From Botryllus schlosseri (lineage: Eukaryota), in assembly GCA_051294905.1 (NCBI GenBank), contig CM119372.1, positions 34,846,001-34,910,000 on the forward strand: 64,000 nucleotides of DNA. The letters run 5' to 3'. How positions within the stretch are numbered: the first letter of the stretch is position 1; each line of letters begins with the position of its first letter. The position numbers and the translations under genes were made by a program. Under the pieces are notes generated by a model. The model worked only from the letters and a program-made list of their open reading frames with translations. It did no database searches and was not told where the DNA came from. Positions 1-53,399 of the stretch are shown piece by piece.

Positions 1-2329
1 ATTCAACAATCAGTGCAATTATTAAAATCTATCGTTTGCGATAAACAGCACTAAAGATGTAATAATTCCAGTATTCATACATTGAACATCCGATACAAAA
101 TGCTTTATTATCCCGATTCCCAACGGGTAATTGAAACGACTAAGTGTAGAATCAGTATATCACAATATCGTTACTATTGAATCCAACGATTTATTGTCGG
201 AATTTGTGACAGAGAATTGAAACACATGCACTTTACAGAGTGTGAAAATATCACTTTGAGTATCGAGTACCGTTCGAAGCTAGCGATCAATTCTTAATCA
301 TTTCAGTAACTCCCCATTGTGCGTGCTAAATGTAAAATATCGCGAGGTTATACACTCTAAGACTTTGAATATTGCAAAAGTAAATTGTGATATGTTTGTT
401 AGATGCATCCAATTCAACTAGAAGTGTCTAGTGCCCAACACTCGTAATATCGAAAAAGTACTTGCTACACTGTTATTTGCTAAACGTGTTTTGCATTGTT
501 GTTCATTTCTAGTATTGATTGAAATCATTCTCGAACCCTCAAATAATAATTCCCGACATGAAACCAAGCCGCTGAAAGTCGTTACCATCACGAAGAAACA
601 ATGTGTACGATGTTTATCAAATGTGTCCTACCTGGCCAACAGAAAACAATTTTCACTCACTCGAAATGAAACCAATGTGATGGTCTCCATTCGATATTTT
701 GTTTGTGTCAAATACTTTGCAATGAACACATTTGCGTGGTTGAGCTTTACATCATCAAGCTGTTATTTGTTAATCAAGATTTCGGTAAACTTGTAAATGT
801 ATCGTTTAACTAACCAACATTTAGCAAATGTTGAACATACCACTTCGAAATACTGCGTTGATCGTAATTTCCATCATCGTGATAATCGAAGTACATTTCT
901 TTCGAATTCGTAACAACCGGCGTTTCTACGACATGATAAATTTTTGACAAGTTATGCTTAGAAGATTGGTTGCATATCGCTACTCCATGGTTACTCCATT
1001 GATCGATATTTTCAAACGAGTAAAATTTATTACTTGAGTTTCTCCGCTTAATGTAAATGCAAACTCAGCCGTCTTTTAACATCACAAAGGCATTGATAAA
1101 AAGTAGACAATCAAACGCTACAAGTTTAACTTTTGTAGGTTGTGTATGCTTACCCCACGCAACTCATTTCTTACCAAAAGTAGATGAAATATATTCATGG
1201 TACACGAAAATACTCGACATTCCCATGCTACGAACCTGTACAATGATTGGTGACGCTTTCAAAACTGTTTCGATACCTCAAGGCCTTTATTGTCTGAATG
1301 GATGTTCATGTATCTTAATAATCAAATAGTTCAACACAGAACTAGTACGAACAGAAACACTAGAGTTGTTTACACAAAAGTTTGTATGTGTACACAGTAT
1401 GCGAATACCATGTGCAAGTCCAGCACAATTGTGGTATCCACCCGAGTTTAGTTAACACAATTTACGACACCGAGGTAGCGTCATCTTTCGTAAAACAACA
1501 AACCAACCAAGCCTTCAGGATATGTCCATGTCATAGCAATAAATCAGCTACTCCAACAACAGAGTACATATGTTTTTAGTTACGGTGCTTACATCTTACA
1601 CACAAATCAATCTACTTTGCTAACGAAAAGTGCTGAGTCATCACATGATTGCCCTCGCAACAAAACAGCTAGAAGATATTATCATTCAAAAATATTCCTA
1701 ACCCTTTGCCCACCAGTGACAAATCATACAACAAACATTTTTTGTGAGTCGAATTGTTGTTCAGTGTCAAGTCTACCTGTTGAAACGTACATTAAACAGT
1801 CACAATTAAATTAAAACCACGAATCTATTTTCATTTCGTCACAAACTGTCACATACAGAAAAATAAATTTTCTTTTCACAACACATACTTGTAACCAATC
1901 GCTTTCATTAAACACACAACTTCATAAAAGTATTTACTTTCTACAACATAGACATTCCGATGTAGTCAAGAAATATTTTTATTAATCAAAATCATCGATT
2001 TCTGTTCACGGCGTTAGTGTGTGCATGTCATGCCTGTGGGCCCCGTATTAAAATGGACACGACACGACTGAATCTATTTTGCATTGGTCGAGACCGAGCG
2101 AACCAGTTACATGTATTCGCGGTAATGATTTAGCTTGTCATATGCGAATGATAGGATTGCTACTCCGACAAATCAAATCAACATACAACAATCTTCTGAC
2201 GATCATAATAGCAATTTCATTTTCCGCCCCTTCATAATTGTATACACACGAAAAGTATATTGTAAAACTCGGTAACTACGTTTAACAAGACCAATCACAC
2301 TACCAGCGTTGAACACAAGATACCTACCC

Positions 2330-2880
2330 AAGTAAAAATATCATTCTGGTTTGGACAACTGACGTTTACCTGTGTAAAATTATCATTTTCACTTGGAGGT
2401 CCACCGTTACCTAACTAAAATACCATTGTCCTTTGGAGATTTATCGTTTAGCCAGTGTAACAATCCCCTTTTCACTTGGAAATATATTTTTGGCCTGGAT
2501 AACAAACCCCTTTTCACTTGGAAATCTATTTTTGCCCTGGATAACAAACCTTTTTCACTTGGAAATATACTTTTTCTCTGGGTAACAAACCTTTTTCACT
2601 TGGAAATATATTTTTTCTCTGGGTAACAAACCTTTTTCACTTGGAAATATATTTTTTTTCTCTGGGTAACAAACCTTTTTCACTTGGAAATATATTTTTT
2701 CCCTGAGCAACAAACCATTTTCACTGAGCAACAAACCATTTTCACTTGGCGGGTCGTCGTTTACCTGAGTAAAAATATCATTTTCCTTTGGAGATCCGAC
2801 GTTTACCCCAGTGTAACAATACATTTTCTCTTGGTCATCTAGCTTTTCCTAGAGTAACAAAACCATTTTCATTTTGAAAT
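2330..2880. repeat. ~41-bp tandem array (TTTTCACTTGGAAATATATTTTTTCTCTGGGTAACAAACC), left arm of copy 1
   Basis: Units are directly visible. Mirrored at ~5350-5860; homologous arrays at ~21850-22600, ~24895-25600 and ~39530-40200. Confidence 0.9.
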
Positions 2881-5349
2881 CTGACAAACACACCTGATAA
2901 TTTGGTATTTGTTGTATTGACGATAGTTTGAAATAGATTACAACGAACAGTGACGGAAATATACACGGACTACCGGTTTCAGAGTATACCTCCATCAGTC
3001 GTATCACATCATCGGTTAACCACATACAATATGCTCTTGTACACCGAAATGCATGTTTTGGAAATTGGACAATAGGCTTCGATAGTTCTGCGATGTCCGG
3101 GTTCGTGCTTTGGATTTTACAGAGTCAAAATGTCTGAATAAAACACCTCCTCGACGTTAGTTGGTATGTGGATAACGGTGTTCGGAAAACGGTTGGATTT
3201 ATGTCACCCATCGCGATAACAATTCCAGGTCGAGTTTTCCCCTGCATGTTTACTATATTGTGTCTTTATTGGTCAATGTATGTCTCGACATTCAGTTTGA
3301 AATCGGAAATCCTGATAAAGTATGTAACCGGATCCGGATATCAACTCTGAATCGATAAACCAATGAACAATATTCAAAGTAAACACCCCGTGTTTCCACG
3401 AATAAATACCATCCAGACATACGTCGCGCTTGTTTGCCCACACCAGTATACGCGTAAATGGAGGTGTGTGACATTGCATGCAATGTGTTGGTATCCAAAC
3501 ATCGGGGAGTAAGCCTTCGATCCACAGACATTATCATAGCCGGTAATTTTGATGCAGATCGAATGTCATCACACCCGATAACAATACCAATAAGCCACAT
3601 TGCAATGACTCTGAGTCAATCTGAAGCATGACATACAGACACACAAACATGGAATCGTAACATGGGTTATTCGCACGACGGTGAAAGTGAACTATACAGC
3701 ATATATCAATAGAGCGTTCACAGTCAAATATACGAACCGTGCACAATCATATACCCGGATTTTTGTTGGATATGTACGAAACCGATAAATCGATACATTT
3801 CTTTTCCTTCAACGTCAATAATACAATCGTCAATCCAATGCATCGCTCGAATGTAAGGTTCGTCTGGTGTAAAATCCATGTCAAATAACACCAAAGTGTG
3901 CCTTCCGTGTTTTATTATTTCCACCATCGCATCTTGTCAGTGTCGTAACACTATGGTGCAGGGACTTGAAAAACGGTACTTTGTAAAACGGATTGACATG
4001 ACCAACTGAAACCGACGTGAATAGCCTTGTGACGATGCCGTTTCAAAATGTTACCGATATGACGAGCGCAACCTCGATCTGTTGTGGCGACGACCGTTTC
4101 GAAATGTCACCGGACGAACTGGACAAAGCCTTACGATGATGTGTTTTATGATTGCGTGTGAAATCACGAGGTAGTGTTCTATTGTGGTGTACGATTGCAG
4201 TCTTCATTCCACAGAAACACACCTTATTGGATCACAGTATCAGTCCGAGATTTGCAGAATCACTGTTCACGATATTTATCTGGAGTCGTTATGTGGGAGT
4301 AGCGACATCCATGCATCGTGATTTAGTGAAAGACTGATCGCAATCATTTCGAATACCCCTCCATGCATCGTGATTTAGTAAAAGACTGATCACAATCATT
4401 TCGAGCACCGTACTTCGATAGTTCACCTAGATCAAACGCTGCAGGTTCAGCAGAAAACTTCGGTGTCGACAACACGGTGGATATTGACCGATGTATCCAA
4501 TTGGTCTGAGTGGTCTGTCCGGGGATAGGGTCATGACTATCTTGTAATGTTACAACGCAATAAAGCCATCGAATAAATCAGTGAACGGTGTCGAAATATC
4601 GATGTAATAGCGCGGACTCAGAGTCATTGCAATGTGGCTTATTGGTATTGATATCGGGTGTGATGACATTCGATCTGCATCAAAATTACCGGCTATGATA
4701 ATGTCTGTGGATCGAATGCTTACTCCCCGATGTTTGGATACCAACACATTGCATGCAATGTCACACACCTCCATTTACGCGTATACTGGTGTGGGCAAAC
4801 AAGCGCGACGTATGTCTGGATGGTATTTATTCGTGGAAACACGGGGTGTTTACTTTGAATATTGTTCATTGGTTTATCGATTCAGAGTTGATATCCGGAT
4901 CCGGTTACATACTTTATCAGGATTTCCGATTTCAAACTGAATGTCGAGACATACATTGACCAATAAAGACACAATATAGTAAACATGCGGGGGAAAACTC
5001 GACCTGGAATTGTTATCGCGATGGGTGACATAAATCCAACCGTTTTCCGAACACCGTTATCCACATACCAACTATCGTCGAGGAGGTGTTTTATTTAGAC
5101 ATTTTGACTCTGGAAAATCCAAAGCACGAACCCGGACATCGCAGAACTATCGAAGCCTATTGTCCAATTTCCAAAACATGCATTTCGGTGTACAAGAGCA
5201 TATTGTATGTGGTTAACCGATGATGTGATACGACTGATGGAGGTATACTCTGAAACCGGTAGTCCGTGTATATTTCCGTCACTGTTCGTTGTAATCTATT
5301 TCAAACTATCGTCAATACAACAAATACCAAATTATCAGGTGTGTTTGTC

Positions 5350-5860
5350 AGATTTCAAAATGAAAATGGTTTTGTTACTCTAGGAAAAGCTAGATGACCA
5401 AGAGAAAATGTATTGTTACACTGGGGTAAACGTCGGATCTCCAAAGGAAAATGATATTTTTACTCAGGTAAACGACGACCCGCCAAGTGAAAATGGTTTG
5501 TTGCTCAGTGAAAATGGTTTGTTGCTCAGGGAAAAAATATATTTCCAAGTGAAAAAGGTTTGTTACCCAGGGAAAAAATATATTTCCAAGTGAAAAAGGT
5601 TTGTTACCCAGAGAAAAAGTATATTTCCAAGTGAAAAAGGTTTGTTATCCAGGGCAAAAATAGATTTCCAAGTGAAAAGGGGTTTGTTATCCAGGCCAAA
5701 AATATATTTCCAAGTGAAAAGGGGATTGTTACACTGGGTAAACGATAAATCTCCTAAGGACAATGGTATTTTAGTTAGGTAACGGTGGACCTCCAAGTGA
5801 AAATGATAATTTTACACAGGTAAACGTCAGTTGTCCAAACCAGAATGATATTTTTACTTG
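5350..5860. repeat. ~41-bp tandem array, right arm of copy 1
   Basis: Reverse complement of 2330-2880, with one unit fewer. Confidence 0.9.
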
Positions 5861-8800
5861 GGTAGGTATCTTGTGTTCAACGCTGGTAGTGTGATTGGTC
5901 TTGTTAAACGTAGTTACCGAGTTGTACAATATACTTTTCGTGTGTATACAATTATGAAGGGGCGGAAAATGAAATTGCTATTATGATCGTCAGAAGATTG
6001 TTGTATGTTGATTTGATTTGTCGGAGTAGCAATCCTATCATTCGCATATGACAAGCAAAATCATTACCGCGAATAAATGTAACTGGTTCGCTCGGTCTCG
6101 ACCAATGCAAAATAGATGATTCGTTTTTTGAAACCGTAGCGAAGACCACATGTAAATCGATGTGATAGACTTCTACCCCCCTTACATTCAGTCGTGTCGT
6201 GTCCATTTTAATACGGGGCCCACAGGTATGACATGCACACACTAACGCCGTGAACAGAAATCGATGATTTTGATTAATAAAAATATTTCTTGACTACATC
6301 GGAATGTCTATGTTGTAGAAAGTAAATACTTTTATGAATTTGTGTGTTTAATGAAAGCGATTGGTTACAAGTATGTGTTGTGGAAAGAAAATTTATTTTT
6401 CTGTATGTGACAGTTTGTGACGAAATGAAAATAGATTCGTGGTTTTAATTGAATTGTGACTGTTTAATGTACGTTTCAACAGGTAGACTTGACACTGAAC
6501 AACAATTCGACTCACAAAAAATGTTTGTTGTATGATTTGTCACTGGTGGGCAAAGGGTTAGGAATATTTTTTGAATGATAATATCTTCTAGCTGTTTTGT
6601 TGCGAGGGCAATCATGTGATGACTCAGCACTTTTCGTTAGCAAAGTAGATTGATTTGTGTGTAAGATGTAAGCACCGTAACTAAAAACATATGTACTCTG
6701 TTGTTGGAGTAGCTGATTTATTGCTATGACATGGACATATCCTGAAGGCTTGGTTGGTTTGTTGTTTTACGAAAGATGACGCTACCTCGGTGTCGTAAAT
6801 TGTGTTAACTAAACTCGGGTGGATACCACAATTGTGCTGGACTTGCACATGGTATTCGCATACTGCGTACACATACAAACTTTTGTGTAAACAACTCTAG
6901 TGTTTCTGTTCGTACTAGTTCTGTGTTGAACTATTTGATTATTAAGATACATGAACATCCATTCAGACAATAAAGGCCTTGAGGTATCGAAACAGTTTTG
7001 AAAGCGTCACCAATCATTGTACAGGTTCGTAGCATGGGAATGTCGAGTATTTTCGTGTACCATGAATATATTTCATCTACTTTTGGTAAGAAATGAGTTG
7101 CGTGGGGTAAGCATACACAACCTACAAAAGTTAAACTTGTAGCGTTTGATTGTCTACTTTTTATCAATGCCTTTGTGATGTTAAAAGACGGCTGAGTTTG
7201 CATTTACATTAAGCGGAGAAACTCAAGTAATAAATTTTACTCGTTTGAAAATATCGATCAATGGAGTAACCATGGAGTAGCGATATGCAACCAATCTTCT
7301 AAGCATAACTTGTCAAAAATTTATCATGTCGTAGAAACGCCAGTTGTTACGAATTCGAAAGAAATGTACTTCGATTATCACGATGATGGAAATTACGATC
7401 AACGCAGTATTTCGAAGTGGTATGTTCAACAATCGCTAAATGTTGGTTAGTTAAACGATACATTTACAAGTTTACCGAAATCTTGATTTACAAATAACAG
7501 CTTGATGATGTAAAGCTCAACCACGCAAATGTGTTCATTGCAAAGTATTTGACACAAACAAAATATCGAATGGAGACCATCACATTGTTTTCATTTCGAG
7601 TGAGTGAAAATTGTTTTCTGTTGGCCAGGTAGGACACATTTGATAAACATCGTACATATTGTTTCTTCGTGATGGTAACGACTTTCAGCGGCTTGGTTTC
7701 ATGTCGGGAATTATTATTTGAGGGTTCGAGAATGATTTCAATCAATACTAGAAATGAACAACAATGCAAAACACGTTTAGCAAATAACAGTGTAGCAAGT
7801 ACTTTTTCGATATTACGAGTGTTGGGCACTAGACACTTCTAGTTGAATTGGATGCATCTAACAAACATATCACAATTTACTTTTGCAATATTCAAAGTCT
7901 TAGAGTGTATAACCTCGCGATATTTTACATTTAGCACGCACAATGGGGAGTTACTGAAATGATTAAGAATTGATCGCTAGCTTCGAACGGTACTCGATAC
8001 TCAAAGTGATATTTTCACACTCTGTAAAGTGCATGTGTTTCAATTCTCTGTCACAAATTCCGACAATAAATCGTTGGATTCAATAGTAACGATATTGTGA
8101 TATACTGATTCTACACTTAGTCGTTTCAATTACCCGTTGGGAATCGGGATAATAAAGCATTTTGTATCGGATGTTCAATGTATGAATACTGGAATTATTA
8201 CATCTTTAGTGCTGTTTATCGCAAACGATAGATTTTAATAATTGTACTGATTGTTGAATGTAATAATACCGATATTGTCGTTTCATCTTTAGTCTTGGTT
8301 ACTGGAAATATTTTCTGATATCCGCGATACGCAGAGTGATTTTTACCAAGGTGGAGTAATTTTCCTATCAAGAACATTTCAGACACACATAGTTTTACAG
8401 CTTAATATGTTAATAACATTGGTACTGAAAATTTTGTTGCTGTCATAACATTTACCACAACGCCGGGTCTAATTAACGCAAATAATTTAATAAAAAAGTA
8501 ATGATCAACTATTACTAATCTCATATGTCAAATCAATGTGTCAATCCTTATGTTCACAGCATGATAACTTTGAATATAACACCATCGTTCGATTGTAAGA
8601 AATGAATTGTCAACTACGTTGGTCGGACATTCAAATCTCGTATACTCAAACATATTATGTTAATCTCAAGTCGCCGTCACTGAGAAGTAATTACTTTTGT
8701 CTTACAAAATATACCGAGTAGTAATTACTTTGTCTTGTAGAATATACCGCATAGTAATTCCTCTATCTTACAGAATTGTAACGACTTTTCAAGCTGAATA

Positions 8801-10141
8801 AAAAAAAGATGTGTAGGGATATGAATACAACCAAGCTTGTTATGGATTTTAGGTTTTAGTGATTGTATGGATTCGTGTATGTTTGGCTGTTTTTCATACT
8901 GATACTGTTTGAGTTGGTTGGGTAAGTTACAAACGGATTTACTTGACAATATTTTCGTGGTTGACTCTTTGAATATGGTAAGATGGTGAGATGTCGAGAC
9001 GTAATACTATTTCCGTACACTCAATTACAACAAAACATAACCCGCATTCAAATAAGCCGTAAGCTACAAGCGGATTTAAAACTTGATGCTGTTTTGTGGT
9101 TGACTCAAGTCAGTAGTCATGTTTGTGTTGATTTCGGTAATGATCATGACGAGTTGGTCGGGTAAATTAGGTAATGTGGTAGTAACTATGACCTTACCGA
9201 GTTGCTGACATTCAAATATCTTTTACGGATTTAATTGTGATAAATTATTTCTCAGTTATTGTTCAGACATTCAAATCTCGTATACTCAAAATATAATATG
9301 TTCAAGTCAAATCGTATATGCACCGATTAGTAAATACTTTGTCTTCAGAATAGTAACGACCTTTACAATCGAATAAAAAAAAAGACCGATCATACGAGTA
9401 CAACCAGGATGAATTAATTCAAGTTTGCGAGTCGTAGTGATATAGCCAAGTAAGTGAAAACTAGATTTTAAACACTTGTTAATGTTGTGAATAATTCTTT
9501 TGAGTATGGTAAGATGTTAAAATGTCTCTTTGACAAACGGAAAGCTGGATCGGGAATAGAGTTGTAATGTTTCATTACTTGTTTCAAATCAATGTGTGTA
9601 TAATATCGAAACGGGACTGTGGGGAAGTTGCTAGTCATGTTTGTCAATCCTATTTCAATTCGCACTACGCCTAAGTCGAAATAATCGGTTTCGGATTACG
9701 ATTTTACAATTATTTCACACCTTTTTGAATAAGCGTCAACTTCACAGAGGATTAGGGTTGGGTCAGAAATAAGTGAAAATTTGTCGGTATTCGAATCACC
9801 GGCTACGCCGGCTCTGTGGTAAACTAATTACTAAAGTAACACCATGCGACTGATTCCTAGATTTAGCAAACTATTTCACACTGACTGGTCTAGTGTAATA
9901 ATCGATAGTAGCACACGACTGCACGGAAACAATTCAGCGCGCAGGTCATTCGAAATATAGGTCGCACGCACTGCTTAATCCTCTTGCAAGCCACGTTTCC
10001 GTTTGTGCGGTTATTGTTGGTGACTCGTACATATTCAACACCGCGCGAGAGATGCCTATACTCGAAAGTACGAATCACCGCCACGCCCATAAGAACACAT
10101 GGCGAATCACCACAGATCCCGTAAGAATACACGACAGACGA

Positions 10142-10560
10142 TTCACCGCCGCAGCCTATACCCAAAAGTACGAATCACGACCCCGAGTTTCCAATACGAG
10201 TCACCGCCACAGCCTATACCCAAAAGTACGAATCACGACCCCGAGTTTTCAATACGAGTCACCGCCACAACCTATACCCAAAAGTACGAATCACGACCAC
10301 GAGTTTTCAATACGAGTCACCGCCGCAGCCTATACCCAAAAGTACGAATCACGACCCCGAGTTTCCAATACGAGTCACCACCACAGCCTATACCCAAAAG
10401 TACGAATCACGACCCCGAGTTTTCAATACGAGTCACCGCCACAGCCTATACCCAAAAGTACGAATCACGACCACGAGTTTTCAATACGAGTCACCGCCGC
10501 AGCCTATACCCGAAAGTACGAATCACGACCGCGTCCATAAGAACCCATTACGACTCACCA
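10142..10560. repeat. 59-bp subterminal tandem repeat (~7 units) of palindromic element copy 1
   Basis: Unit TCACCGCCRCAGCCTATACCCAAAAGTACGAATCACGACCMCGAGTTTYCAATACGAG is repeated; it explains the repetitive ORFs at 10052-10578. Confidence 0.92.
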
Positions 10561-11567
10561 CCACAAGGGGGGTCTTAAAGTACGAGTCACCACCCCGGGT
10601 TTTCAATACGAGTCACCCCCCCGCCCATAAGAACCCCTGCCAGGTCGCGACCGATCTACTATACTACTTACGACGCCTAATGCATGGCTTCGTTTAATAT
10701 TCACCGAAGTTGACGTTGCCACGAAAAGCTTAAGAGTAGCTGAACTTAGCAACTGGTATCTATGTTGCTAATAACGTAAAATCCCAGTGTCAATAAAGAC
10801 ATCATATAGTGCGTGTGCGTGCAAACAGTAACGTTCCCTGGCTGCTTTATAAAACCATAAGTTATGTGGTTGGGGACTCGTGACAAGTTGGCAAAGAGAT
10901 ATTGTATTTGTGAGTTACTAATGTGTAATGAGTTGTTGTTCCACAAATGCTATTTTATTGTGGGGTGTGGCAGTTACGAACCTGTCGTAAACCATCAGGC
11001 AGGGGCATGCAGTTTGCGATGCAACAGCACAACCTACATTCCTAGCGAAATGAGTGAATATTCACAACCAAAGGGTGGTACATGAAAACACAACCGAACT
11101 AAGAATTATATCGTGGTTGTAAACCCTACCTGCCTATACGTCCATACCATCCTTAGTCCGTACATACAAGCATCATTGGGATAAAAATGTTGTATTTGGT
11201 TTATACCGTGGTGTATAAGGTATAGGTTCAGATATCGTACACCACAAGTATATTTTCACACCCTTATATCACCCGTGGTAGACGGGTGTGAATGTGAATA
11301 CACACCGTTTTCGCTAAGAGTGTACATCAAGATTACGACGACTATAATTGCAACGTATGATACTCTCGAGGGATGATGTGTGTGAGTAATGAGTATCTAT
11401 GAGAAGGCTACGGTGACATTGCTATCTCTAGTGCTAATACTTAGAAGAGACATGGTACCATATTTATGTGTGGTGTACCTTGGTAACGCCTTTAACGCCA
11501 GACGTTGGTAAATTTGGTTTTCGGCTTTGTGGTGTTAAATATTTTCCATGTGGGGTTGCGGAACTCG

Positions 11568-14655: not shown

Positions 14656-16522
14656 TTACGTAGTTTTTTGATGGTGGCTCAACAAGAGATGGTTGAATCG
14701 CTTAAGTTCATTCTTCGCAAAGCAATTGAAAGCTGTCTGGGCGATGGAGTTGAAGTTTGCATGACCAGATTGACAGCAGTTATTCAAAAGAGGGCGCATT
14801 AGGCTTGACAAATGAACCACCTCGTAAGTTGCCTCCGTGAAAACAAATCTTTGGTTTTGACAACAAAACAATTTTTGCTTCATGTCCATGGAATCACTTA
14901 TGATGGTGAAATATTTGACAGCAAGCGTCGTTATTGCAAAGCATAACTCGGTAGGCTCAGCAAGTCCACCTCGATCAGCCATTTTGAATATTCTTTTGTA
15001 TTCTTCTGGGAAGTAGAAATCCAAATCCGGAACGTCACGGTCGGTTATCAGCAATGTTTTGCAATCCATGCACTTTCGTCGCACAGAAATTGATCGGCCA
15101 ATGCATCCACTGACAAAATATATCACACCGGCCTCTTCAGTTGTGATAAAATTCAGCGGTGCAGAGATAGGCAAAAGAAAGCTCACCAACCATTTGAAAT
15201 CTTCTGCAGGTTGTAACACAGTTGCGGTCAAAGGTGGGTCTTGTTCATTCAAATTAAGAATACTCTTCAAACCATGCTGCTGAAGAAAGCTCAAGCAGCG
15301 GAACTTTTTTTCCGCAGGCAGTAACTGCTTCACGGACATGAAAAAGTTTGCCCCATTAACTTGCCGGTACATGTCAAATCTAGCCTCAATCGGATCTGAC
15401 AAGACTTTTCCGGTGAGAAAATACTTCACGCCATGTTGCCGTTGAAGGTATCTTGACAGTGAAAGGACTGAGGTCATGGTTCGAATACAAGCCATAAAGG
15501 TCTCGTTAGTGAGTCCAGCTCTGTCAGATCTTTGCCACTCCATGAATATAGTTATGGCTTTGTTCAGGGATATCTAGACTAGGGATTGATAACTCTTTTT
15601 TGCCCATTACGTGATGGTTTGCCTTCCCCAGTCAGACCCGCGAATGAGCCATGGGTGTACTCAATTCTTTGTGCTGTATACACCTCATCTATCATGAGGC
15701 ATACGATACGATCGCGGGGTGTTAAGTCTTTTGATCGCTCTTTTAAATAATGCAAGTCTACTTTTCTTGGCTCCACAGTCATTTTCGATGATATTTGGCG
15801 AAGTCGACTCATCGAAGGCAAGGCAAAGAAATGCTTCAACTTTTTGTACAGGACTAGTCAATCTCGACAGGAAAGCCAACATAAGAGTATCAGGTGAATA
15901 TCGGCGACCTTTTGGGTGGATTTGAATCAATTTCAACTGTTTCACAAGAAATCCTAACAAAGGTGTCATGCAGCCATCCTGTAGAGCTGTGGACTCTGCC
16001 GTAGCGACGAGATAATCTTCCGGGATAGACACAGCAAGACTAATGCTGCTCGAGTCATCACTGCCACTATACAGTTTCCTGCATACAGCAAGCACATTGG
16101 CTACCTGGCTGGTGCTTTGTACAAATCCGGTTGGAAGCACGTTCTCATACATCGATCTGGGAACTGGTTTGGAATTAACAAAAGCAAAGACTTCCAAATT
16201 CTGCTTTATGAGAAGGGATATGGCAAGTTTCGGTGGATTGATCATATTTTCTGATGTCTCTATCCAGTGAAATTGCAGCGAATCATCGGTCATCGGTGCA
16301 CACAGAACTATATCCAGATGGTAGTGTCTCGTTCTTAATCTTCTCCTTCCGAGAAGCTAATGTTTCAATATTTTCAAGCAGAAAAATTTGCTTGTTACGG
16401 CCCTCAATTACAGAATTTTGCATTTCACGTCTTGCAGAAGCACTTGTTGATTTCGTACTCCGAGATGTAGGGCTCGGTACACTCAAATACCCCGACAGAT
16501 TTGGGAAAATATGAGGAACAAC
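14656..16522 (-). pseudogene. P-element/THAP9-like transposase, central and C-terminal parts (frameshifted, internally deleted)
   Basis: Motifs KGRRYSP, LPSMSRLR, CLMIDEVY (first catalytic Asp region), LTNETF, YFLTGKVLSDPIEARF (catalytic Glu region) and YFVSGCIGR..CMDC, spread over four ORFs. Confidence 0.85.
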
Positions 16523-17429
16523 AGTAGTAGTATAGATCGCTCGCGATTCGTAATGGGCTCTTATGGGCGCGGCGGTGAGGTGCCTGAAAACTCGTGGTGG
16601 TGATGGCACCCTTTTACACCCCCTCTCGGCGGTGAGGTGCCATGTGTTCTTATGGATGCGGTGATGATGGCACCCTTTCGGGTATAGGCTGCGGTGGTGA
16701 GGTGCCGCGAAAACTCGTGGTGGTGATGGCACCCTTTTACAACCCCTCTCGGCGGTGAGGTACCTATGTGGTGATGATGGTACCCTTTCTGGTATAGGCT
16801 GCGGCGATGATGTGCCTACGGATTCTTGTGTCGTAGTGAACTAACGTTGTGGATATAGGCTGCGGTGATGATGTGCCCACGGATTCTTGTGTCGTAGTGA
16901 ACTAACGTTGTGGATATAGGCCGCGGCGATGATGTGGCTGTCGTGTATTATTACACGGTTTCTACTGATTCGCCATGTGTTCTTATGGGTGCGGTCGTGA
17001 TGCGCACTTTCAACCATCTCTCGCGCGGTGTTGAATATGTACGAGTCACCAACAATAACCGCACAAACGGAAACGTGGCTTGTTGTGAGGATTAAGCAGC
17101 GCGACCTATATTTCGAATGACCTGCGCGCTGAATTATTTCCCGCCAACCGCGTGCTACTATCGATTATTGCACTAGACCAGTCAGTGTGAAATAGTTTGA
17201 TCGTAAATTATGATATATGATGTCGTAGTTTAGTCGTGTCAAATGACCGATCGTGTTCTCTTTCCTCGCTATTGATTGCTAGCTGAATAATACTTTCGGC
17301 TTATTCGCTGTTTCGCGCCTACAGAATAGTCTGCTGTTCACAGTCGCAACAAGAATCACAAGTATACACATTTACACATTCGTTTATTACTCTGAAATCA
17401 AACTCTTCACAAAAACACGTACAATCGTA

Positions 17430-17879
17430 TCATTCACTTTTTTTATCATCGCCAAAATTATCCAAGTATTCCTCGGTTGAAAACCCTTGAGCTCTTTTTA
17501 TCAAGAATGCGATAGCATGATCTCCACACACATCTGAAGTTTTACTCTGTAACTGTTTCCCAGTCACTGAAAATTCATCCGGCTCCAGGAATTCGATTAT
17601 CTGAGGTTTTAGTGGTCCGAAGCCTAGCGAATCATGAAAATGAGTATCGTCATCTCTGTATATAGACACCCAGTGAGATCCAGGCAAACTCGATTCGTCG
17701 TAATTAATGGTGATAGCGAATTTTCCGCTAGTTGGTTTCTTCGGTAACTGATCTACTGGATAAGTTCGGCGATTCGAATATCGACAATAACCGCGTTCGC
17801 ATACTAACACTCTAAAAAGGTGTGAAATATTTGTAAAAATCCTACGACCACTCACAAGATAACACATCAGAATAGTCAT
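17430..17879 (-). CDS. Adenain-like (Polinton/Maverick-type) cysteine protease, probably degraded at both ends
   Basis: YPVDQLP...INYDESSLPGSHWVSIY...FHDSLG...QLQSKTSDVCGDH gives the H/D/Q/C catalytic pattern. A 1-nt shift in an A-run hides the expected C-terminus (NDTIVRVFVKSLISE). Confidence 0.85.
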   Translation of the reverse strand: MTILMCYLVSGRRIFTNISHLFRVLVCERGYCRYSNRRTYPVDQLPKKPTSGKFAITINYDESSLPGSHWVSIYRDDDTHFHDSLGFGPLKPQIIEFLEPDEFSVTGKQLQSKTSDVCGDHAIAFLIKRAQGFSTEEYLDNFGDDKKSE

Positions 17880-18833
17880 CTCTCGTGGTTTGGTGTTACA
17901 AAGGTAGGAATTATAAGTAATATTTTGGACGACAATGACATATCGTTATTCTTATGGACGCGGCGACATGATAACGTTACAGGTATAGGTTGTGGTGGTG
18001 ATTCGCCATGTGTTCTTATGCGTGCGCTCGCACGTCGTACTTTCAAGTATAGGTATCTCTCGCATGTCGTATTGGAAACTCGTGTTGGCTCGCTCACGCG
18101 GCGAAATTTTAGTAATCAGTTTGTCACAGTACTTGATATCGCTGGTAAGATTTAACAAGTAACGAATAACAGACCGCGGTAACTTGAATAGCGACAAATT
18201 GTCACTTATTTCCGCTCTAACTCTAATCCTTTGTGAAGTGAACGCTTATTCAAAAGGGCGTGATATAATTTTAAAATCCAACGACCACTCACCGGATAAT
18301 GCTTCAGACATATAGCAATCCCTCATACCCGCCTACAAGGTAATATTTCGGTAATTAGTTTGTCACAGAACCGTCGCAGGCGGTGATTGGAAAACCGACA
18401 ATTTGTCACTCGCCCGCGATCGCTATATGTTTCACGCCTCCAGAATAGTGGCTGACTTTAGTTGCGTGATAAGATCCATGAAAATATTCAATCAATGTGT
18501 TAGTTTATCAACTTGAAATGAAACTCACTACACAAATCAAGTCGATTCGTATCTGAATGTTTTAAATCGGTACAACTCTAATCCTTTGACAAAGCCCTTA
18601 ACGCGTTTTTGGTGAATCGAACGTAACCCGAATATTACTGACGCCGACTTTCAGCCGCATCGAATTATTCGCACATTCCGCGTCACTGTTTTCGCACTTA
18701 TAGAATCAATACCAACTATAACTCTTCAAGAATCAAGAATCACAAGTATGTGCATTACACAGTTATTGTCTTTATTAACTTGAAATCAAACACTTAACAA
18801 AAACACACAACTAATCATTTGGCAACTCTAGCA

Positions 18834-19109
18834 TTACCAAAAAATTCCAGTATTGTTGATTGAAAATCCTTGAGTCATTATTATCAAAAATGTTATAGTA
18901 CCGCATCGGGATCCATTCGCGGGATGTACTAAAGGTAAATCCAAATAATCCACATTCGCGGGATGTACTAAAGGTAAATCCAAATAATCCACATTCGTGG
19001 GATGTACTAAAGGTAAATCCAAATAATCCAGAATGAAATATTTGGACTTTGACATAGTGTGAATTGAAATAGGATTGACAAACACGACTACCAACTTTGA
19101 TCCAGCCAC
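18834..19109 (-). pseudogene. Diverged paralogue of the adenain-like protease (catalytic His absent, internal 39-bp triplication)
   Basis: AGSKLVVVFVN..YFILDYLDLPLVHP aligns with PGSHWVSIYRD..HFHDSLGFGPLKP, and RCGTITFLIIMTQGFS aligns with VCGDHAIAFLIKRAQGFS. The downstream nucleotides are also similar. Confidence 0.6.
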
Positions 19110-21849
19110 ATTTCAAGATCATACTTTGAAACAAGTAATGTAACATTACAACTCTATTCACGATCCCGCTTTCCATTTGTCAAAGAAATATTTTAACATC
19201 TTACCATACTCAAAAGAATTATTCACAACATTAACAATTGTTAAAAATCTAGTTTTCACTTACTTGATTATATCACTGCAACTCATAAATTTGAATTAAT
19301 TCATCCTGGTTGTATTCGTATGCTCGGTCTTTTTTATTCAATTGTAAAGGTTGTTACTATTCTGAAGACAAAGTATTTACTAATCGGTGCATATACGATT
19401 TGACTTGGACATATTATATTTTGAGTATACGAGATTTGAATGTCTGAACAATAACTGAGAAATAATTTATCACAATTAAATCCGTAATATTACAGCGTAA
19501 AAGATATTGGAATGTCAGCAACTCTGCAAGGTCATAGTTACTACCACTAATTTACCCGACCAACTCGTCATGATCATTCCTGAAATCAACACAAACGTGA
19601 CCACTGACTTGAGTTAACCACAAAACAGCATCAAGTTTTAAATCCACTTGTAGCTTACGGCTTATTTGAATGCGGGTTATGTTTTGTTGTAATTGAGTGT
19701 ACGGAAATAGTATTACGTCTCGACATATCACCATGTCGGAATTTGTGGCAGAGAATTGAAACATATGCACTTTACAGAGTGTGAAAATATCTCTTTGAGT
19801 ATCGAGTACCGTTCGAAGCAAGCGATCAATTCTTAATCATTTCAGTAACTCCCCATTGTGTGTGCTAAATGTAAAATATCGCGAGGTTATACACTCTAAG
19901 ACTTTGATTATTACAAAAGTAAATTGTGATATGTTTGTTAGATGCATCCAATTCAACTAGAAGTGTCTAGTGCCCAACACTCGTAATATCAAAAAAGTAC
20001 TCGCTACACTGTTATTTGCTAAACGTGTTTTGCATTGTTGTTCATTTGTAGTATTGAATGAAATTGTTCTTGAACCCTCAAATAATAATTCCCGACATGA
20101 AACCAAGCCGCTGAAAGTCGTTACCATCACGAAGATACAATGTGTACGATGTTTGTCAAATGTGTCCTACCTGGCCAACAGAAAACAATTTTCACTAGCT
20201 TGGTAATGAAACCGAAGTCTCCATTCGATATATTGTTTGCGTCAAATACTTTACAACGAACACATTTGCGTGGTTGAGCTTTACATCATCAGACTGTCAT
20301 CTGTACATCAAGAATACATCAGACTTGTAACTGGATCGTTTACCTAACCGAGTTGATATTTTTGTCATTTAGTGATTGCTGAACATACCACTTCGAAATA
20401 CTGCGTTGATCTTAATTTCCATCATCGTGATAAGTGAAGTACATTTGTTTTGAATTCATAACAATAGGCTTTTCTACGACATGATAAATTATTGACAAGT
20501 TCTGCTTAGAAGATTGGTTGCATATCACGAAAAATAATATACCACACATATTATTACTGTTACTCCATTCATCGGTATTTTTTCCGTTGTCGATTTTCAA
20601 ACGAGTAAAATTTATTACTTGAGTTGCTCTGCTTAATGTAAATGTAAACTCGCCCATCTTTCAACAACAAACAATGTTAAAATAGTATACAATCAAACAC
20701 AACAAGTTTTACGATACTAATTATTATCCCACATAACCCATTTCTTACTGAAGACATATGAAATATATTCATGTTACACGAAAATATTCGCTCATGCTAC
20801 AAACCTGTACAATGATTGGTGGTGCTTTCAAACTGTTTCGATACCTCAAGAACTTTATTGTCTGAACGGTTGTTCATGTATCGTAATAATCAAGTAGTTA
20901 AACATAGAACTAGTATTAACAGAAACACCAGAGTTGTTTACACAAAAGTTTGTATGTGTACAGTATACGAATACCATTTGTAAGTCCAGCACAATTGTGG
21001 TATCCATACGAGTTTAGTTAACACAATTTACGACACCGAGGTCGCGTCATCTTTCGTAAGACAACAAACCAAGGCTTCAGGATATGTCCATGTCATAGCA
21101 ATAAATCAGCTACTCCAACAACAGAGTGCATATGTTTCTAGTTACGGCGCTTACATCTTACACACAAATCAATCTACTTTGCTAACGAAAAGTGGTGAGT
21201 CATCATATGGTTGTCCTCACAACTAAAACATACTATCACACAAAATGGTCGTTATAGTTTGCACACCAACGGTACATCGTACAAGTAACAAGTCTCGAGA
21301 ATCCAGTTATTCAAAAAACGTGAAAGTATTTCTACACCAAGTCGTTATGTTGACGAAAGCGTATATTGTAAGATCATGATCGATTTACATTCGTTGGTCA
21401 CAAAATGTCACTACTCTAAATAATTATTTTTCACTCAAACACAAACGCATACTTGTCACCATTCGTTTTCATCAAGCACGAGTTCAAGAAACTTACTTAC
21501 TACGATATGAATTTTTATTTTTATGTTGTGTAAATAGGTAATAATTAATTCAAGTAACACTATATCAACATCATCGAGTTGTGCTAATAGATTTACATGT
21601 GGTCTTGTGGTTTTCGTCGGGACATACAGCACGAACTAACTGTAGACTCCTCTCTGTTGTACAGCTACTCGGTAATCGAAATGCATTAACATGTAAACAA
21701 CGATCTTGTTTCGTCACACCAAAAATATGTTCACTGTCGCGATACTCCGCACAAGACGTGCATAGCCTTTTCACACTCGTAATAGTATACCAACGTCAAG
21801 CGATAACGTTTACCAACACCAACGACACTAAACCCACGACGTTTACCTA

Positions 21850-22600
21850 TGTAAAATTACCACTTTCACTTGTCAGTCCATCGTTTACCTGACTAAACAT
21901 ATTATTTTCCTTTGGAGATCTGACGTTTACCCAGAGTAAGAAACCATTTTCACTTGTAAATATTTTTTTTTCCTCGGCTAACAAACCTTTTTTCACTTGT
22001 AAATATATTTTTTTCCTCGGCTAACAAACCTTTTTTCACTTGTAAATATTTTTTTTCTCTGGTTAACAAACCTTTTTCACTTGGAAATATATTTTTTCTC
22101 TTGGTAATAAACCTTTTTCACATGGAAATATATTTTTTCTCTTGGTAATAAACCTTTTTCACATGGAAATATATTTTTTCTCTGAGTAACAAACCTTTTT
22201 CACATGGAAATATATTTTTTCTCTGAGTAACAAACCTTTTTCACTTGGAAATATATTTTTTCTCTGGGTAACAAACCTTTTTCCCTTGGAAACATATTTT
22301 TTCCCCGGGTAACAAACCTTTTTCCCTGAGCAACAAACCTTTTTCACTTACAAATATATTTTTTCCTGGGTAACAAACCTTTTTCACTTGGAAATATATT
22401 TTTTTCCCTGGGTAACAAACCTTTTTCGCTTGGAAATATATTTTTCCCTGGGTTACAAACCTTTTTCACTTGGTGATCCGTCGTTTACCTGAGTAAAAAT
22501 ATCATTTTCCTTTGGGGATCTGGCGTTTACCCAGTGTAACAATACATTTTCTCTTGGTCATCTAGCTTTTCCTAGAGTAACAAAACCATTTTCATTTTGA
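21850..22600. repeat. ~41-bp tandem array, left arm of copy 2
   Basis: Units are directly visible; one unit more than the right arm. Confidence 0.9.
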
Positions 22601-24894
22601 AATCTGACAACCACACCGACAATTTGATATTTTTGTATTTTCTTACAGCGAACAGCGACAAAATATACACCAACAACGACTCCGATACATTTGTCTAATC
22701 AAATATTCACTTGTGTTGGTGCATCCCATCAAAATCATCGGTTACCCACATGCAATGCGCTCTTGTACACAGAAATGCATGTTTTGGAAACTTGGACAAT
22801 AGGCTTCGATAGTTCTGTGCTGTCTGGGTTCGTGCTTTGGATTTTCCAGAGTCAAAATGTCTGAATAAAACACCTCCTCGACGATGGTTGGTATGTGGAT
22901 AACGGTGTTCGGAAAACGGTTGGATTTATGTCACCCATCGCGATAACAATTCCAGGTCAAGTTTTCCCCTCGCATGTTTACTATATTGTGTCTTTATTGG
23001 TCAATGTATGCCTCGACATTCAGTTTGAAATCGGAAACCCTGATAAAGTATGCAACCGGATCCGGATATCAACTCTGAATCGATAAACCAATGAACAATA
23101 TTCAAAGTAAACATGTTACACCCTGTGTTTCCACGAAAAAATACCATCCAGACATACGTCGCGCTTGTTTGCCCACACCAGTATACGCGTAAATGGAGGT
23201 GTGTGACATTGCATGCAATGTGTTGGTATACAAACATCGATCCACAGACAATATCATAGCCGGTAGTTTTGATGTAGATCGAATGTCATCACACCCGATA
23301 ACAATACCAATAAGCCACATTGTAATGACTCTGAGTCCGCGGTATTAGTCATGACCCTATCTCCGGACAGACGTCCCAGATCAATTGGAGACATCGATCA
23401 ATATCCGTCGCGTTGTCGACACCGAACTTTTCTGCTGCAGCGTTTGACCAATGTGAACTATCGAAGTATGGGTGCTCGAAATGATTGCGATCAGTCTTTC
23501 AGTCACGATGCATCGATGTCGCTACTCCCACATAACGACTCCAGATAAATATCGTGAACAGTGATTCTGCAAATCTCGGACTGATACTGTGATCCAATAT
23601 TGTGTGTTTCTGTGGAATCAAGACTGTAATCGTACACCACAATGGAAATCATAAAACACATCATCGTAAGGATCCAGTTCGTCCTGTGACATTTCGAAAC
23701 GGTCATCGCCACAATAGATCGGTATCATTTTGAAACGACATCGTCACAAGTCTATTGACGTCGATTCTGTTGGTCATGTCAATCCATTTCACAATCCACC
23801 GTTTTTCAAGTCCCTGCACCATAGTGTTACGACACAGACAAGAAGCGACGGTGGAAATAATAAAACACGAAAAGCACACTTTGGTGTTATTTGACATGGA
23901 TTTTACACGAGATGAACCTCACATTCGAGCGATGAATTGGAATGGTGATTGTATTGTTGACGTCAAAGGAAAAGAAATGTATCGATTTATCGGTTTCGTA
24001 CATATCCAACAAAAATCTGGGTATATGATTGTGCATGGTTCGCATATTCGACTGTGAACGCCCAATTGGTATATGTTGTACAGTTCACTTTCACCGTCGT
24101 GCGAATAACCCATGTTAGGGTTCCATGTTTGTGTGTCTGTATGTCATGCTTCAGATTGACTCAGAGTCATTACAATGTGGCTTATTGGTATTGTTATCGG
24201 GTGTGATGACATTCGATCTACATCAAAACTACCGGCTATGATATTGTCTGTGGATCGATGTTTGTATACCAACACATTGCATGCAATGTCACACACCTCC
24301 ATTTACGCGTATACTGGTGTGGGCAAACAAGCGCGACGTATGTCTGGATGGTATTTTTTCGTGGAAACACAGGGTGTAACATGTTTACTTTGAATATTGT
24401 TCATTGGTTTATCGATTCAGAGTTGATATCCGGATCCGGTTGCATACTTTATCAGGGTTTCCGATTTCAAACTGAATGTCGAGGCATACATTGACCAATA
24501 AAGACACAATATAGTAAACATGCGAGGGGAAAACTTGACCTGGAATTGTTATCGCGATGGGTGACATAAATCCAACCGTTTTCCGAACACCGTTATCCAC
24601 ATACCAACCATCGTCGAGGAGGTGTTTTATTCAGACATTTTGACTCTGGAAAATCCAAAGCACGAACCCAGACAGCACAGAACTATCAAAGCCTATTGTC
24701 CAAGTTTCCAAAACATGCATTTCTGTGTACAAGAGCGCATTGCATGTGGGTAACCGATGATTTTGATGGGATGCACCAACACAAGTGAATATTTGATTAG
24801 ACAAATGTATCGGAGTCGTTGTTGGTGTATATTTTGTCGCTGTTCGCTGTAAGAAAATACAAAAATATCAAATTGTCGGTGTGGTTGTCAGATT

Positions 24895-25600
24895 TCAAAA
24901 TGAAAATGGTTTTGTTACTCTAGGAAAAGCTAGATGACCAAGAGAAAATGTATTGTTACACTGGGTAAACGCCAGATCCCCAAAGGAAAATGATATTTTT
25001 ACTCAGGTAAACGACGGATCACCAAGTGAAAAAGGTTTGTAACCCAGGAAAAAATATATTTCCAAGCGAAAAAGGTTTGTTACCCAGGGAAAAAAATATA
25101 TTTCCAAGTGAAAAAGGTTTGTTACCCAGGAAAAAATATATTTGTAAGTGAAAAAGGTTTGTTGCTCAGGGAAAAAGGTTTGTTACCCGGGGAAAAATAT
25201 GTTTCCAAGGGAAAAAGGTTTGTTACCCAGAGAAAAAATATATTTCCAAGTGAAAAAGGTTTGTTACTCAGAGAAAAAATATATTTCCATGTGAAAAAGG
25301 TTTGTTACTCAGAGAAAAAATATATTTCCATGTGAAAAAGGTTTATTACCAAGAGAAAAAATATATTTCCAAGTGAAAAAGGTTTGTTAACCAGAGAAAA
25401 AAAAATATTTACAAGTGAAAAAAGGTTTGTTAGCCGAGGAAAAAAATATATTTACAAGTGAAAAAAGGTTTGTTAGCCGAGGAAAAAAAAAATATTTACA
25501 AGTGAAAATGGTTTCTTACTCTGGGTAAACGTCAGATCTCCAAAGGAAAATAATATGTTTAGTCAGGTAAACGATGGACTGACAAGTGAAAGTGGTAATT
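24895..25600. repeat. ~41-bp tandem array, right arm of copy 2
   Basis: Reverse complement of 21850-22600. Confidence 0.9.
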
Positions 25601-28345
25601 TTACATAGGTAAACGTCGTGGGTTTAGTGTCGTTGGTGTTGGTAAACGTTATCGCTTGACGTTGGTATACTATTACGAGTGTGAAAAGGCTATGCACGTC
25701 TTGTGCGGAGTATCGCGACAGTGAACATATTTTTGGTGTGACGAAACAAGATCGTTGTTTACATGTTAATGCATTTCGATTACCGAGTAGCTGTACAACA
25801 GAGAGGAGTCTACAGTTAGTTCGTGCTGTATGTCCCGACGAAAACCACAAGACCACATGTAAATCTATTAGCACAACTCGATGATGTTGATATAGTGTTA
25901 CTTGAATTAATTATTACCTATTTACACAACATAAAAATAAAAATTCATATCGTAGTAAGTAAGTTTCTTGAACTCGTGCTTGATGAAAACGAATGGTGAC
26001 AAGTATGCGTTTGTGTTTGAGTGAAAAATAATTATTTAGAGTAGTGACATTTTGTGACCAACGAATGTAAATCGATCATGATCTTACAATATACGCTTTC
26101 GTCAACATAACGACTTGGTGTAGAAATACTTTCACGTTTTTTGAATAACTGGATTCTCGAGACTTGTTACTTGTACGATGTACCGTTGGTGTGCAAACTA
26201 TAACGACCATTTTGTGTGATAGTATGTTTTAGTTGTGAGGACAACCATATGATGACTCACCACTTTTCGTTAGCAAAGTAGATTGATTTGTGTGTAAGAT
26301 GTAAGCGCCGTAACTAGAAACATATGCACTCTGTTGTTGGAGTAGCTGATTTATTGCTATGACATGGACATATCCTGAAGCCTTGGTTTGTTGTCTTACG
26401 AAAGATGACGCGACCTCGGTGTCGTAAATTGTGTTAACTAAACTCGTTTGGATACCACAATTGTGCTGGACTTACAAATGGTATTCGTATACTGTACACA
26501 TACAGACTTTTGTGTAAACAACTCTGGTGTTTCTGTTAATACTAGTTCTATGTTTAACTACTTGATTATTACGATACATGAACAACCGTTCAGACAATAA
26601 AGTTCTTGAGGTATCGAAACAGTTTGAAAGCACCACCAATCATTGTACAGGTTTGTAGCATGAGCGAATATTTTCGTGTAACATGAATATATTTCATATG
26701 TCTTCAGTAAGAAATGGGTTATGTGGGATAATAATTAGTATCGTAAAACTTGTTGTGTTTGATTGTATACTATTTTAACATTGTTTGTTGTTGAAAGATG
26801 GGCGAGTTTACATTTACATTAAGCAGAGCAACTCAAGTAATAAATTTTACTCGTTTGAAAATCGACAACGGAAAAAATACCGATGAATGGAGTAACAGTA
26901 ATAATATGTGTGGTATATTATTTTTCGTGATATGCAACCAATCTTCTAAGCAGAACTTGTCAATAATTTATCATGTCGTAGAAAAGCCTATTGTTATGAA
27001 TTCAAAACAAATGTACTTCACTTATCACGATGATGGAAATTAAGATCAACGCAGTATTTCGAAGTGGTATGTTCAGCAATCACTAAATGACAAAAATATC
27101 AACTCGGTTAGGTAAACGATCCAGTTACAAGTCTGATGTATTCTTGATGTACAGATGACAGTCTGATGATGTAAAGCTCAACCACGCAAATGTGTTCGTT
27201 GTAAAGTATTTGACGCAAACAATATATCGAATGGAGACTTCGGTTTCATTACCAAGCTAGTGAAAATTGTTTTCTGTTGGCCAGGTAGGACACATTTGAC
27301 AAACATCGTACACATTGTATCTTCGTGATGGTAACGACTTTCAGCGGCTTGGTTTCATGTCGGGAATTATTATTTGAGGGTTCAAGAACAATTTCATTCA
27401 ATACTACAAATGAACAACAATGCAAAACACGTTTAGCAAATAACAGTGTAGCGAGTACTTTTTTGATATTACGAGTGTTGGGCACTAGACACTTCTAGTT
27501 GAATTGGATGCATCTAACAAACATATCACAATTTACTTTTGTAATAATCAAAGTCTTAGAGTGTATAACCTCGCGATATTTTACATTTAGCACACACAAT
27601 GGGGAGTTACTGAAATGATTAAGAATTGATCGCTTGCTTCGAACGGTACTCGATACTCAAAGTGATATTTTCACACTCTGTAAAGTGCATATGTTTCAAT
27701 TCTCTGCCACAAATTCCGACATGGTGATATGTCGAGACGTAATACTATTTCCGTACACTCAATTACAACAAAACATAACCCGCATTCAAATAAGCCGTAA
27801 GCTACAAGTGGATTTAAAACTTGATGCTGTTTTGTGGTTAACTCAAGTCAGTGGTCACGTTTGTGTTGATTTCAGGAATGATCATGACGAGTTGGTCGGG
27901 TAAATTAGTGGTAGTAACTATGACCTTGCAGAGTTGCTGACATTCCAATATCTTTTACGCTGTAATATTACGGATTTAATTGTGATAAATTATTTCTCAG
28001 TTATTGTTCAGACATTCAAATCTCGTATACTCAAAATATAATATGTCCAAGTCAAATCGTATATGCACCGATTAGTAAATACTTTGTCTTCAGAATAGTA
28101 ACAACCTTTACAATTGAATAAAAAAGACCGAGCATACGAATACAACCAGGATGAATTAATTCAAATTTATGAGTTGCAGTGATATAATCAAGTAAGTGAA
28201 AACTAGATTTTTAACAATTGTTAATGTTGTGAATAATTCTTTTGAGTATGGTAAGATGTTAAAATATTTCTTTGACAAATGGAAAGCGGGATCGTGAATA
28301 GAGTTGTAATGTTACATTACTTGTTTCAAAGTATGATCTTGAAAT

Positions 28346-28621
28346 GTGGCTGGATCAAAGTTGGTAGTCGTGTTTGTCAATCCTATTTCAATTCACACTA
28401 TGTCAAAGTCCAAATATTTCATTCTGGATTATTTGGATTTACCTTTAGTACATCCCACGAATGTGGATTATTTGGATTTACCTTTAGTACATCCCGCGAA
28501 TGTGGATTATTTGGATTTACCTTTAGTACATCCCGCGAATGGATCCCGATGCGGTACTATAACATTTTTGATAATAATGACTCAAGGATTTTCAATCAAC
28601 AATACTGGAATTTTTTGGTAA
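28346..28621 (+). pseudogene. Diverged adenain-like protease paralogue (mirror copy)
   Basis: Translation identical to 18834-19109. Confidence 0.6.
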
Positions 28622-40700: not shown

Positions 40701-40888
40701 TAAACATGTTACACCCTGTGTTTCCACGAAAAAATACCATCAAGACATACGTCGCGCTTGTTTGCCCACACCAGTATACGCGTAAATGGAGGTGTGTGAC
40801 ATTGCATTCAATGTGTTGGTAAACAAACATCGGGGAGTAAACCGTCGATCCACAGACATTATCATAGCCGGTAATTTTGATGCAGATC
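34708..40888 (+). mobile_element. Palindromic-family element copy 3, solo left arm (spacer and right arm missing)
   Basis: Starts AGTATTATAGTAGATCGGTC, followed by subterminal repeats. Colinear with the arms of copies 1 and 2, including the 41-bp array. Stops 57 bp before the usual inner junction. Confidence 0.85.
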
Positions 40889-53183: not shown

Positions 53184-53399
53184 AAATAAATGGGTTCATT
53201 TCAATATTGTACTTTCAGATTTGAATTTCACTTTCACGATAGAAACTCTCTGCGGGCCGGTCAAAATCCCTGCGCGGCCGGCTCCGGCCCGCGGGCCGTA
53301 TGTTGCCAGCCCTTGGTCATTTCTGCCACGACAATGGTTTCAGTAATTCAGCCCTTTGTGATGTTTCGGACGACGTCTATGCTCGCTCTCTTTCATCAT

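Follow-up and report, generated by a model that had tools for sequence, protein, structure and literature searches.

The 64,000-nucleotide stretch of Botryllus schlosseri DNA analysed here (the window) contains two giant DNA palindromes, copies 1 and 2, which are mobile elements of ~13–14 kb folded at one shared base. We consider it probable that they represent an abundant family of non-autonomous Maverick/Polinton elements built as giant palindromes, the arms of which are matched through helper-driven panhandle replication. The elements have Maverick ends and a common fold junction, with a target-site duplication and a protease remnant at copy 2; the arms were matched in two lineages, and the family is abundant. 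A preliminary description of this DNA had proposed a palindrome that formed once and was then propagated as a family. That proposal is supported by the shared junction, by the copy 2 duplication and by high depth in all four of the sequencing runs analyzed, but it left the Maverick parent unnamed, missed the re-matching of the arms and overlooked a hairpin at the fold.

Layout of the palindromic copies

Self-comparison of the window bore out the arm/spacer/arm layout previously ascribed to both copies. The left arm of copy 1 (1..3617, forward) is cut by the window edge and forms an inverted pair with 8259-4615, in two blocks (1-2076 with 8259-6183 and 2072-3617 with 6117-4615). Its right arm (4615..10668, reverse) is 6,054 nt long and finishes at 10663-10668 with (ACT)2, the Maverick end motif; between the arms lies a spacer, or loop, of 997 nt (3618..4614). 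Based on mirror geometry, the left end of copy 1 is placed 2,409 bases before the mirror of base 1, at window coordinate ~-2408. This predicted start, ~2.4 kb upstream and outside the window, gives a full length of ~13.1 kb. Copy 2 is complete in the window. Its left arm (16523..23337, forward) pairs with its right arm (30933-24158 in inverted order; 24158..30933, reverse) around a spacer of 820 nt (23338..24157). The inverted arms, at 6,054-6,815 bp, make up 92-94% of each element.

The two arms of a copy are very similar. Over the whole visible arm of copy 1 the divergence is 0.67% (24 substitutions and 3 indels, with 3,550 matches), and in copy 2 it is 0.16% (11 substitutions and 4 indels). 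Among the differences in copy 1 are a 41-bp tandem array (2457..2725, forward) whose mirror at 5507-5732 is shorter by one unit, and a 70-bp insertion private to the right arm (6118..6187). The right arm of copy 1 also has a subterminal 58-bp tandem array of 6.8 copies (10138..10530, forward). Copy 3 (34708..40891, forward) consists of one arm only, more decayed and with its end motif worn, and stops 54 nt before the fold; no second arm or far end was found for it within the window, and it served as the outgroup.

Spacer and fold junction

The spacers of copies 1 and 2, aligned end to end in reversed orientation, match in 753 of 820 columns and mismatch in 67 (8.2%), which confirms the homology claimed for them. 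The earlier estimate of ~8% difference thus holds overall, but the 17 differences counted in the first 204 bases are actually 14. The opposite orientation of the spacers was likewise described correctly, although it is uninformative because flipping a palindromic element flips its spacer alone.

The claim that symmetry breaks at a single base is correct for both sides of both copies. The arm ends share a motif and then run into the same two different sequences in both copies, which places the fold at a single base on either side. Each junction is matched to the base between copies that are ~9% apart in the arm. At the junction lies a 13-bp hairpin palindrome with a 6-bp stem and a 1-nt loop (3606..3618 in copy 1, 24157-24169 in copy 2). 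The chance of such a palindrome ending within two bases of a given site is ~1%. This hairpin leaves a small chance that fold-back occurred repeatedly at one hotspot, a reading weighed below with the depth data.

The spacer also contains a 93-codon reading frame, which is open in copy 2 (23776..24057, forward) and is a remnant with two in-frame stops in copy 1 (3721..3999, reverse). No family was found for it. One relative of equal length was found at 83% identity, and a search of the Atlas gave no usable match, with low recognition. Its standing as a conserved gene is not supported: comparison of copies 1 and 2 shows no signal of selection (changes at the three codon positions 8:8:8, dN/dS 0.76), in a test of two copies that is weakened by the broken frame of copy 1.

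Ends and insertion sites

Ends were assigned to Maverick/Polinton based on (AGT)2//(ACT)2 or (AG)3//(CT)3; a passage of PMC8097293 defines vertebrate Maverick ends as 5'-(AGT)2//(ACT)2-3'. The motif is present at both ends of copy 2, which starts with (AGT)3 and finishes with (ACT)3, and at the right end of copy 1, which finishes with ACTACT at base 10668. Copy 2 is flanked by a perfect 6-bp duplication, AACAAC (16517..16522 on the left and 30934-30939 on the right, forward), the length that PMC8097293 gives for a Maverick target-site duplication. The chance of such a perfect duplication is ~3e-4. A THAP reading frame is split by copy 2 exactly at this duplication.

Copy 1 is followed by TACGAC (10669..10674, forward), the predicted right target-site duplication, whose left partner would lie outside the window. 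Two contigs from public run X17 align to the right flank of copy 1 from 10671 and 10672, after 96 and 97 non-aligning letters. This is the pattern that an insertion-free allele would give, and it supports the right boundary of copy 1 independently, if indirectly.

Abundance in public sequencing runs

Contigs cover all 30 bins of 3500-11300 in the runs examined (X1, X17, X5 and X7; 4 of the 24 listed, of which X1 may be the source of the window itself). Median arm depth in these four runs exceeds that of the neighboring flank bin 107- to 5,804-fold, contig depth not being copy number. The ratio of arm to spacer depth is 2.6, 2.8, 2.9 and 5.7, where a value of 2 is expected if most members are two-armed and 5.7 is far from it. 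The family is highly abundant in all four runs, and the depths are compatible with two arms per spacer. A spacer deletion at the site of the copy 2 deletion, joining 4537 to 4605, recurs in X17 and X5. Runs from marine metagenomes and other organisms contain 0.24-0.32 of the sequence words; X5 and X7 are the ones from this group among the four runs above.

These data bear on two alternatives. If the palindrome is not inherited, single-armed parents would fold back repeatedly at the 13-bp hairpin, and the arms in each lineage would match because each palindrome would be new. The position of the hairpin, exactly at the fold in both copies (the ~1% chance given above), and the single arm of copy 3 would suit such a hotspot. 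Nevertheless we regard repeated fold-back as improbable: the far end of the spacer is also joined at the same base, so that recurrence would be required of two breakpoints; the depth of arm relative to spacer is at least 2.6 in four of four runs, suggesting that most elements are two-armed; and no non-palindromic parent extending beyond the spacer appears among the 24 loose ends listed, beside which there are 2,984 more. The other alternative is an assembly or amplification artefact made of chimeric fold-back reads, for which it may be said that no single contig among the four runs spans the whole element. We give it almost no credence, as the arms of each copy differ (by 24 and 11 substitutions), one junction is common to two diverged copies, copy 2 has its perfect duplication with the THAP frame split at it, and the copy 2-like spacer deletion is seen again in X17 and X5.

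Protease remnant and gene content

Both arms of copy 2 carry a broken gene for an adenain (Peptidase C5)-type protease (17390..17765, reverse, in the left arm; mirror at 29690-30065, forward). Its first 22 codons are missing and the frame changes near the 3' end. Of 109 residues compared, 108 agree with P0001, an intact protein of 147 residues from an ENA contig; this 99% identity implies that public data contain a close intact gene. The nearest Atlas clusters of P0001 are Peptidase_C5 of Preplasmiviricota (score 0.97) and its fold matches an adenovirus endoprotease cluster of the Atlas (TM 0.92), placements by features and by fold that count as one source of evidence. HMMER retrieved 1,572 relatives at E<=0.001. 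When P0001 is aligned with 49 relatives taken from the 150 listed, His53, Gln95 and Cys102 are invariant; the profile of this alignment matches adenain (E 4.7e-9), and 23 of the 50 members carry PF00770. Pfam gave no match for P0001 or for the copy 2 protease frame in the window, and a single-sequence search of the PDB with the window fragment returned nothing significant. Passages of PMC4028283 and PMC6431247 describe an adenain-type protease as a core Maverick gene.

No protease match was found in copies 1 and 3; copy 1 belongs to the family through its collinear arm blocks, ends and junction. No gene for pPolB, integrase, packaging ATPase or capsid was found in the elements, inside which no frame is long enough. 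No match above the Pfam cut-off was obtained for 132 frames, a search that highly diverged ATPase or capsid remnants could escape. These frames comprise 131 of the 145 listed in the window plus the spacer frame; of the other 14, 13 lie in or adjoin tandem arrays and one is the protease frame, scanned separately. An SSB-like gene in each arm was looked for and not confirmed, there being no Pfam match in the frames scanned. Codon-position skew is clear in one of the 27 gap-free blocks listed (24256-24524 against copy 3, 9:2:1), and the best frame of that block contains stops. A search for an autonomous helper turned up none: the viral contigs of IMG/VR gave no close relative of the protease (one locus at 28%), none of 142 candidate stretches from JGI metagenomes proved to be a relative, and the fold junction had no exact match in metagenome contigs.

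Based on the Maverick ends and duplication, the failure to find any intact core gene and the descent of the protease, copies 1 and 2 are best classed, as far as sequence can place them, as non-autonomous Maverick/Polinton derivatives and not as members of an autonomous family.

Arm matching

To call the architecture heritable requires that the arms were re-matched after the copies diverged. If a palindrome had formed once and then merely been copied, the distance between left and right arms would equal the distance between copies, and left arms would group with left arms. This is not observed; thus the arms have been re-matched. Out of 3,845 aligned columns, 1,890 well-aligned ones were kept after removal of those close to gaps or with low identity around them. 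In this set 107 columns separate copy 1 from copy 2 on both arms simultaneously and 9 are confined to a single arm; another 2 follow different patterns, and no column sets left arms against right. Gap blocks behave similarly: in 44 of 54, the two arms of a single copy share the block. Divergence in the inner arm is ~9% between copies and 0.1-0.7% between the arms of one copy. With copy 3 as the outgroup (578 columns), derived changes on both arms number 28 in copy 1 and 13 in copy 2, against 4 within-copy arm differences in the same columns. Both arms of copy 2 contain the protease block, which the full right arm of copy 1 lacks. We conclude, from two palindromic copies and one single arm, that the mirror arms were re-matched within each lineage after divergence and are not merely descended from an old palindrome.

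The main rival retains the same Maverick-derived family and has the arms matched by chromosomal gene conversion, the process that matches the arms of long palindromes on sex chromosomes. In principle it accounts equally well for the 107 both-arm and 9 private sites, sequence alone not separating it from panhandle copying, and it requires no unusual replication. However, copy 1 retains 24 substitutions, the 70-bp insertion and a 43-bp array difference, spread along the arm; arm divergence differs fourfold between the copies, as insertion ages would give; and wiping would have to be near-complete in both lineages, kilobase segments such as the protease block included. We therefore hold gene conversion to be unlikely, while the strongest of the alternatives. 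Private differences, the 70-bp insertion among them, persist without repair and show no fall-off toward the junction, so that matching at transposition suits the data better than continuous repair.

Discussion

Under helper-driven panhandle replication, a single template switch at the 13-bp hairpin would have created the palindrome, placing a copy of the left ~6 kb of a parent at the right end of that parent. A helper Maverick would then provide integrase and protein-primed polymerase in trans, and replication would pass through a self-paired (panhandle) single strand in which one arm is copied onto the other. The arms would be made identical at transposition and would drift afterwards, in which case arm divergence would date each insertion and copy 2 (0.16%) would be a younger insertion than copy 1 (0.67%). 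Sequence anatomy was the basis on which a panhandle was proposed for Maverick/Polinton replication; passages of PMC4046053 and bioRxiv 10.64898/2026.07.28.741278 cite it as a model.

A more specific version can be offered tentatively: the family may be a defective DNA genome, a Polinton virus satellite of the copy-back type that was fixed in the germline, replicated as a near-complete hairpin, had one arm repaired from the other in each cycle, was packaged in helper capsids and outgrew its helper. Within that version, the length of 13-14.5 kb would be close to that of the helper because of packaging in helper capsids. Were it true, the panhandle step long proposed for Mavericks would have its first genomic footprint in the matched arms.

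The family, which is >90% inverted repeat and has arms re-matched in two lineages, makes the panhandle model testable by counting: each copy preserves a record of whether its arms were matched at transposition or afterwards. Arm divergence would also provide an LTR-like insertion clock for a DNA element. Near-perfect palindromes of 6-7 kb are usually thought to be unstable; those described here indicate that they can attain high copy number in an animal genome. The family itself is a selfish repeat of a known superfamily, and foldback analogues exist in other superfamilies.

Autonomous Mavericks/Polintons share with these elements (AGT)2//(ACT)2 ends, a 6-bp duplication at copy 2 and, as the broken remnant in copy 2, an adenain-type protease, and the length of the palindromic elements falls inside the 12.7-24.6 kb range given for them in passages of PMC8097293 and PMC4028283. 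In contrast, TIRs of intact vertebrate Mavericks are 46-1,447 bp according to the text of PMC8097293, whose supplements may list long-TIR elements, compared with arms of 6,054-6,815 bp here. Autonomous Mavericks have intact core genes, whereas here none was found and the protease is broken and present in both arms of copy 2. TIRs of ~0.05-1.5 kb, such as mark an autonomous Maverick, are missing from the copies, and its pPolB, integrase, packaging ATPase and capsid genes were not found in them.

Non-autonomous Polintons described by Kapitonov and Jurka in 2006 and in Repbase are reportedly internal deletions with ordinary TIRs. They resemble the present family in being helper-dependent deletion derivatives with Polinton ends. 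The pages of PMC3014272 on the anole report no non-autonomous Polintons, and those of bioRxiv 10.1101/2024.01.15.575659 describe ordinary TIRs of 744 bp. A literature search by title and abstract opening found no giant palindromic non-autonomous Mavericks; Kapitonov and Jurka 2006, Repbase, Dfam, subscription journals and supplements were outside its scope.

The elements might instead be a foldback-type cut-and-paste transposon like Galileo, Foldback or Tetris, having picked up its protease fragment from a Maverick. Cut-and-paste movement, as generally understood, does not by itself re-match arms. Galileo, Foldback and Tetris are similar in being non-autonomous and nearly all composed of two long, internally repetitive inverted arms, and in the growth of their TIRs through recruited internal sequence (PMC3573991; see also PMC4079207). 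The long arms with internal tandem arrays seen here do resemble Galileo TIRs as depicted in part of PMC3573991. However, those transposons are P-superfamily cut-and-paste elements with TIRs of at most ~1.26 kb, other ends and duplication length, and chimeric arms; here the arms measure 6 to 6.8 kb, their ends carry (AGT)2 and the duplication is of 6 bp, against ~1.26 kb and 7-bp flanks in Galileo (PMC3573991). P-type ends, a 7-bp duplication and TIRs of up to ~1.3 kb are not what copies 1 and 2 possess, and we judge a foldback transposon to be very improbable.

Further parallels to the proposed Maverick derivative are viral. Adenovirus 12 SYREC is said to have a palindromic structure, and copy-back or snap-back defective viral genomes have one end present twice, inverted. 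Like the present elements, these are helper-dependent replicons with one end twice in inverted form, and the virus of SYREC is protein-primed. The helper dependence of the SYREC recombinant is stated in a passage of PMC2396429. They are transient products of cell culture, whereas the family described here is integrated and at high copy in an animal genome. The element appears to work like a helper-dependent copy-back derivative of a Maverick.

Copy 2 lies within a THAP-domain gene

Copy 2, one of the giant palindromic Maverick/Polinton derivatives, is inserted inside a THAP-domain gene on the minus strand (14656-16522 and 30934-31242), as identified by a THAP profile match and by the reading frame on both flanks. 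The match (E 6e-13; 83 of 87 profile positions aligned) ends at the target-site duplication of copy 2, and the frame reads LKPGVV on one flank and VVPHIF on the other. The interrupted gene is probably a P-element-like transposase. No Pfam matches were found in the downstream frames at 15685-16356 and 14656-15573.

Features of the arms of copies 2 and 3

Self-comparison of the window identified an internal duplication within the copy 2 arm (17350-17515 versus 18734-18898, 71%). Because the duplication includes the 3' end of the broken adenain-type protease gene, it suggests a second, more decayed protease copy.

The single arm of copy 3 ends exactly where a 151-bp tandem array begins (40886-41770, ~4.7 copies scored), 54 nt before the fold junction at which symmetry breaks in copies 1 and 2. 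Copy 3 also contains arm sequence missing from copies 1 and 2 (37340-38300) and may retain more of the parent element. A 149-codon ATG frame within this sequence (37577-38023, minus strand) has no Pfam match.

Other repeats and a second palindrome

A low-complexity frame of 444 codons on the minus strand, 0.9 kb to the right of copy 1 (11568-12902), is probably a host exon. The pair of 337-bp inverted repeats (83%, spaced ~2.9 kb) detected by self-comparison at 47849-51400 is likely an old DNA transposon.

Self-comparison also showed a second palindrome in the window (58121-61462), built of an inverted pair of Penelope-like reverse transcriptase and weak GIY-YIG frames (58283-59962, minus; 59846-61258, plus). 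Several related 450-500 bp repeats occur at the Penelope ends in both orientations (52698-54683, 58121-58565 and 60976-61462) and are likely pieces of Penelope pseudo-LTRs. The palindrome's 1,503-bp arms, separated by a 294-bp loop, are 100% identical, which could alternatively reflect an assembly artefact; an inverted arrangement is usual in Penelope elements.
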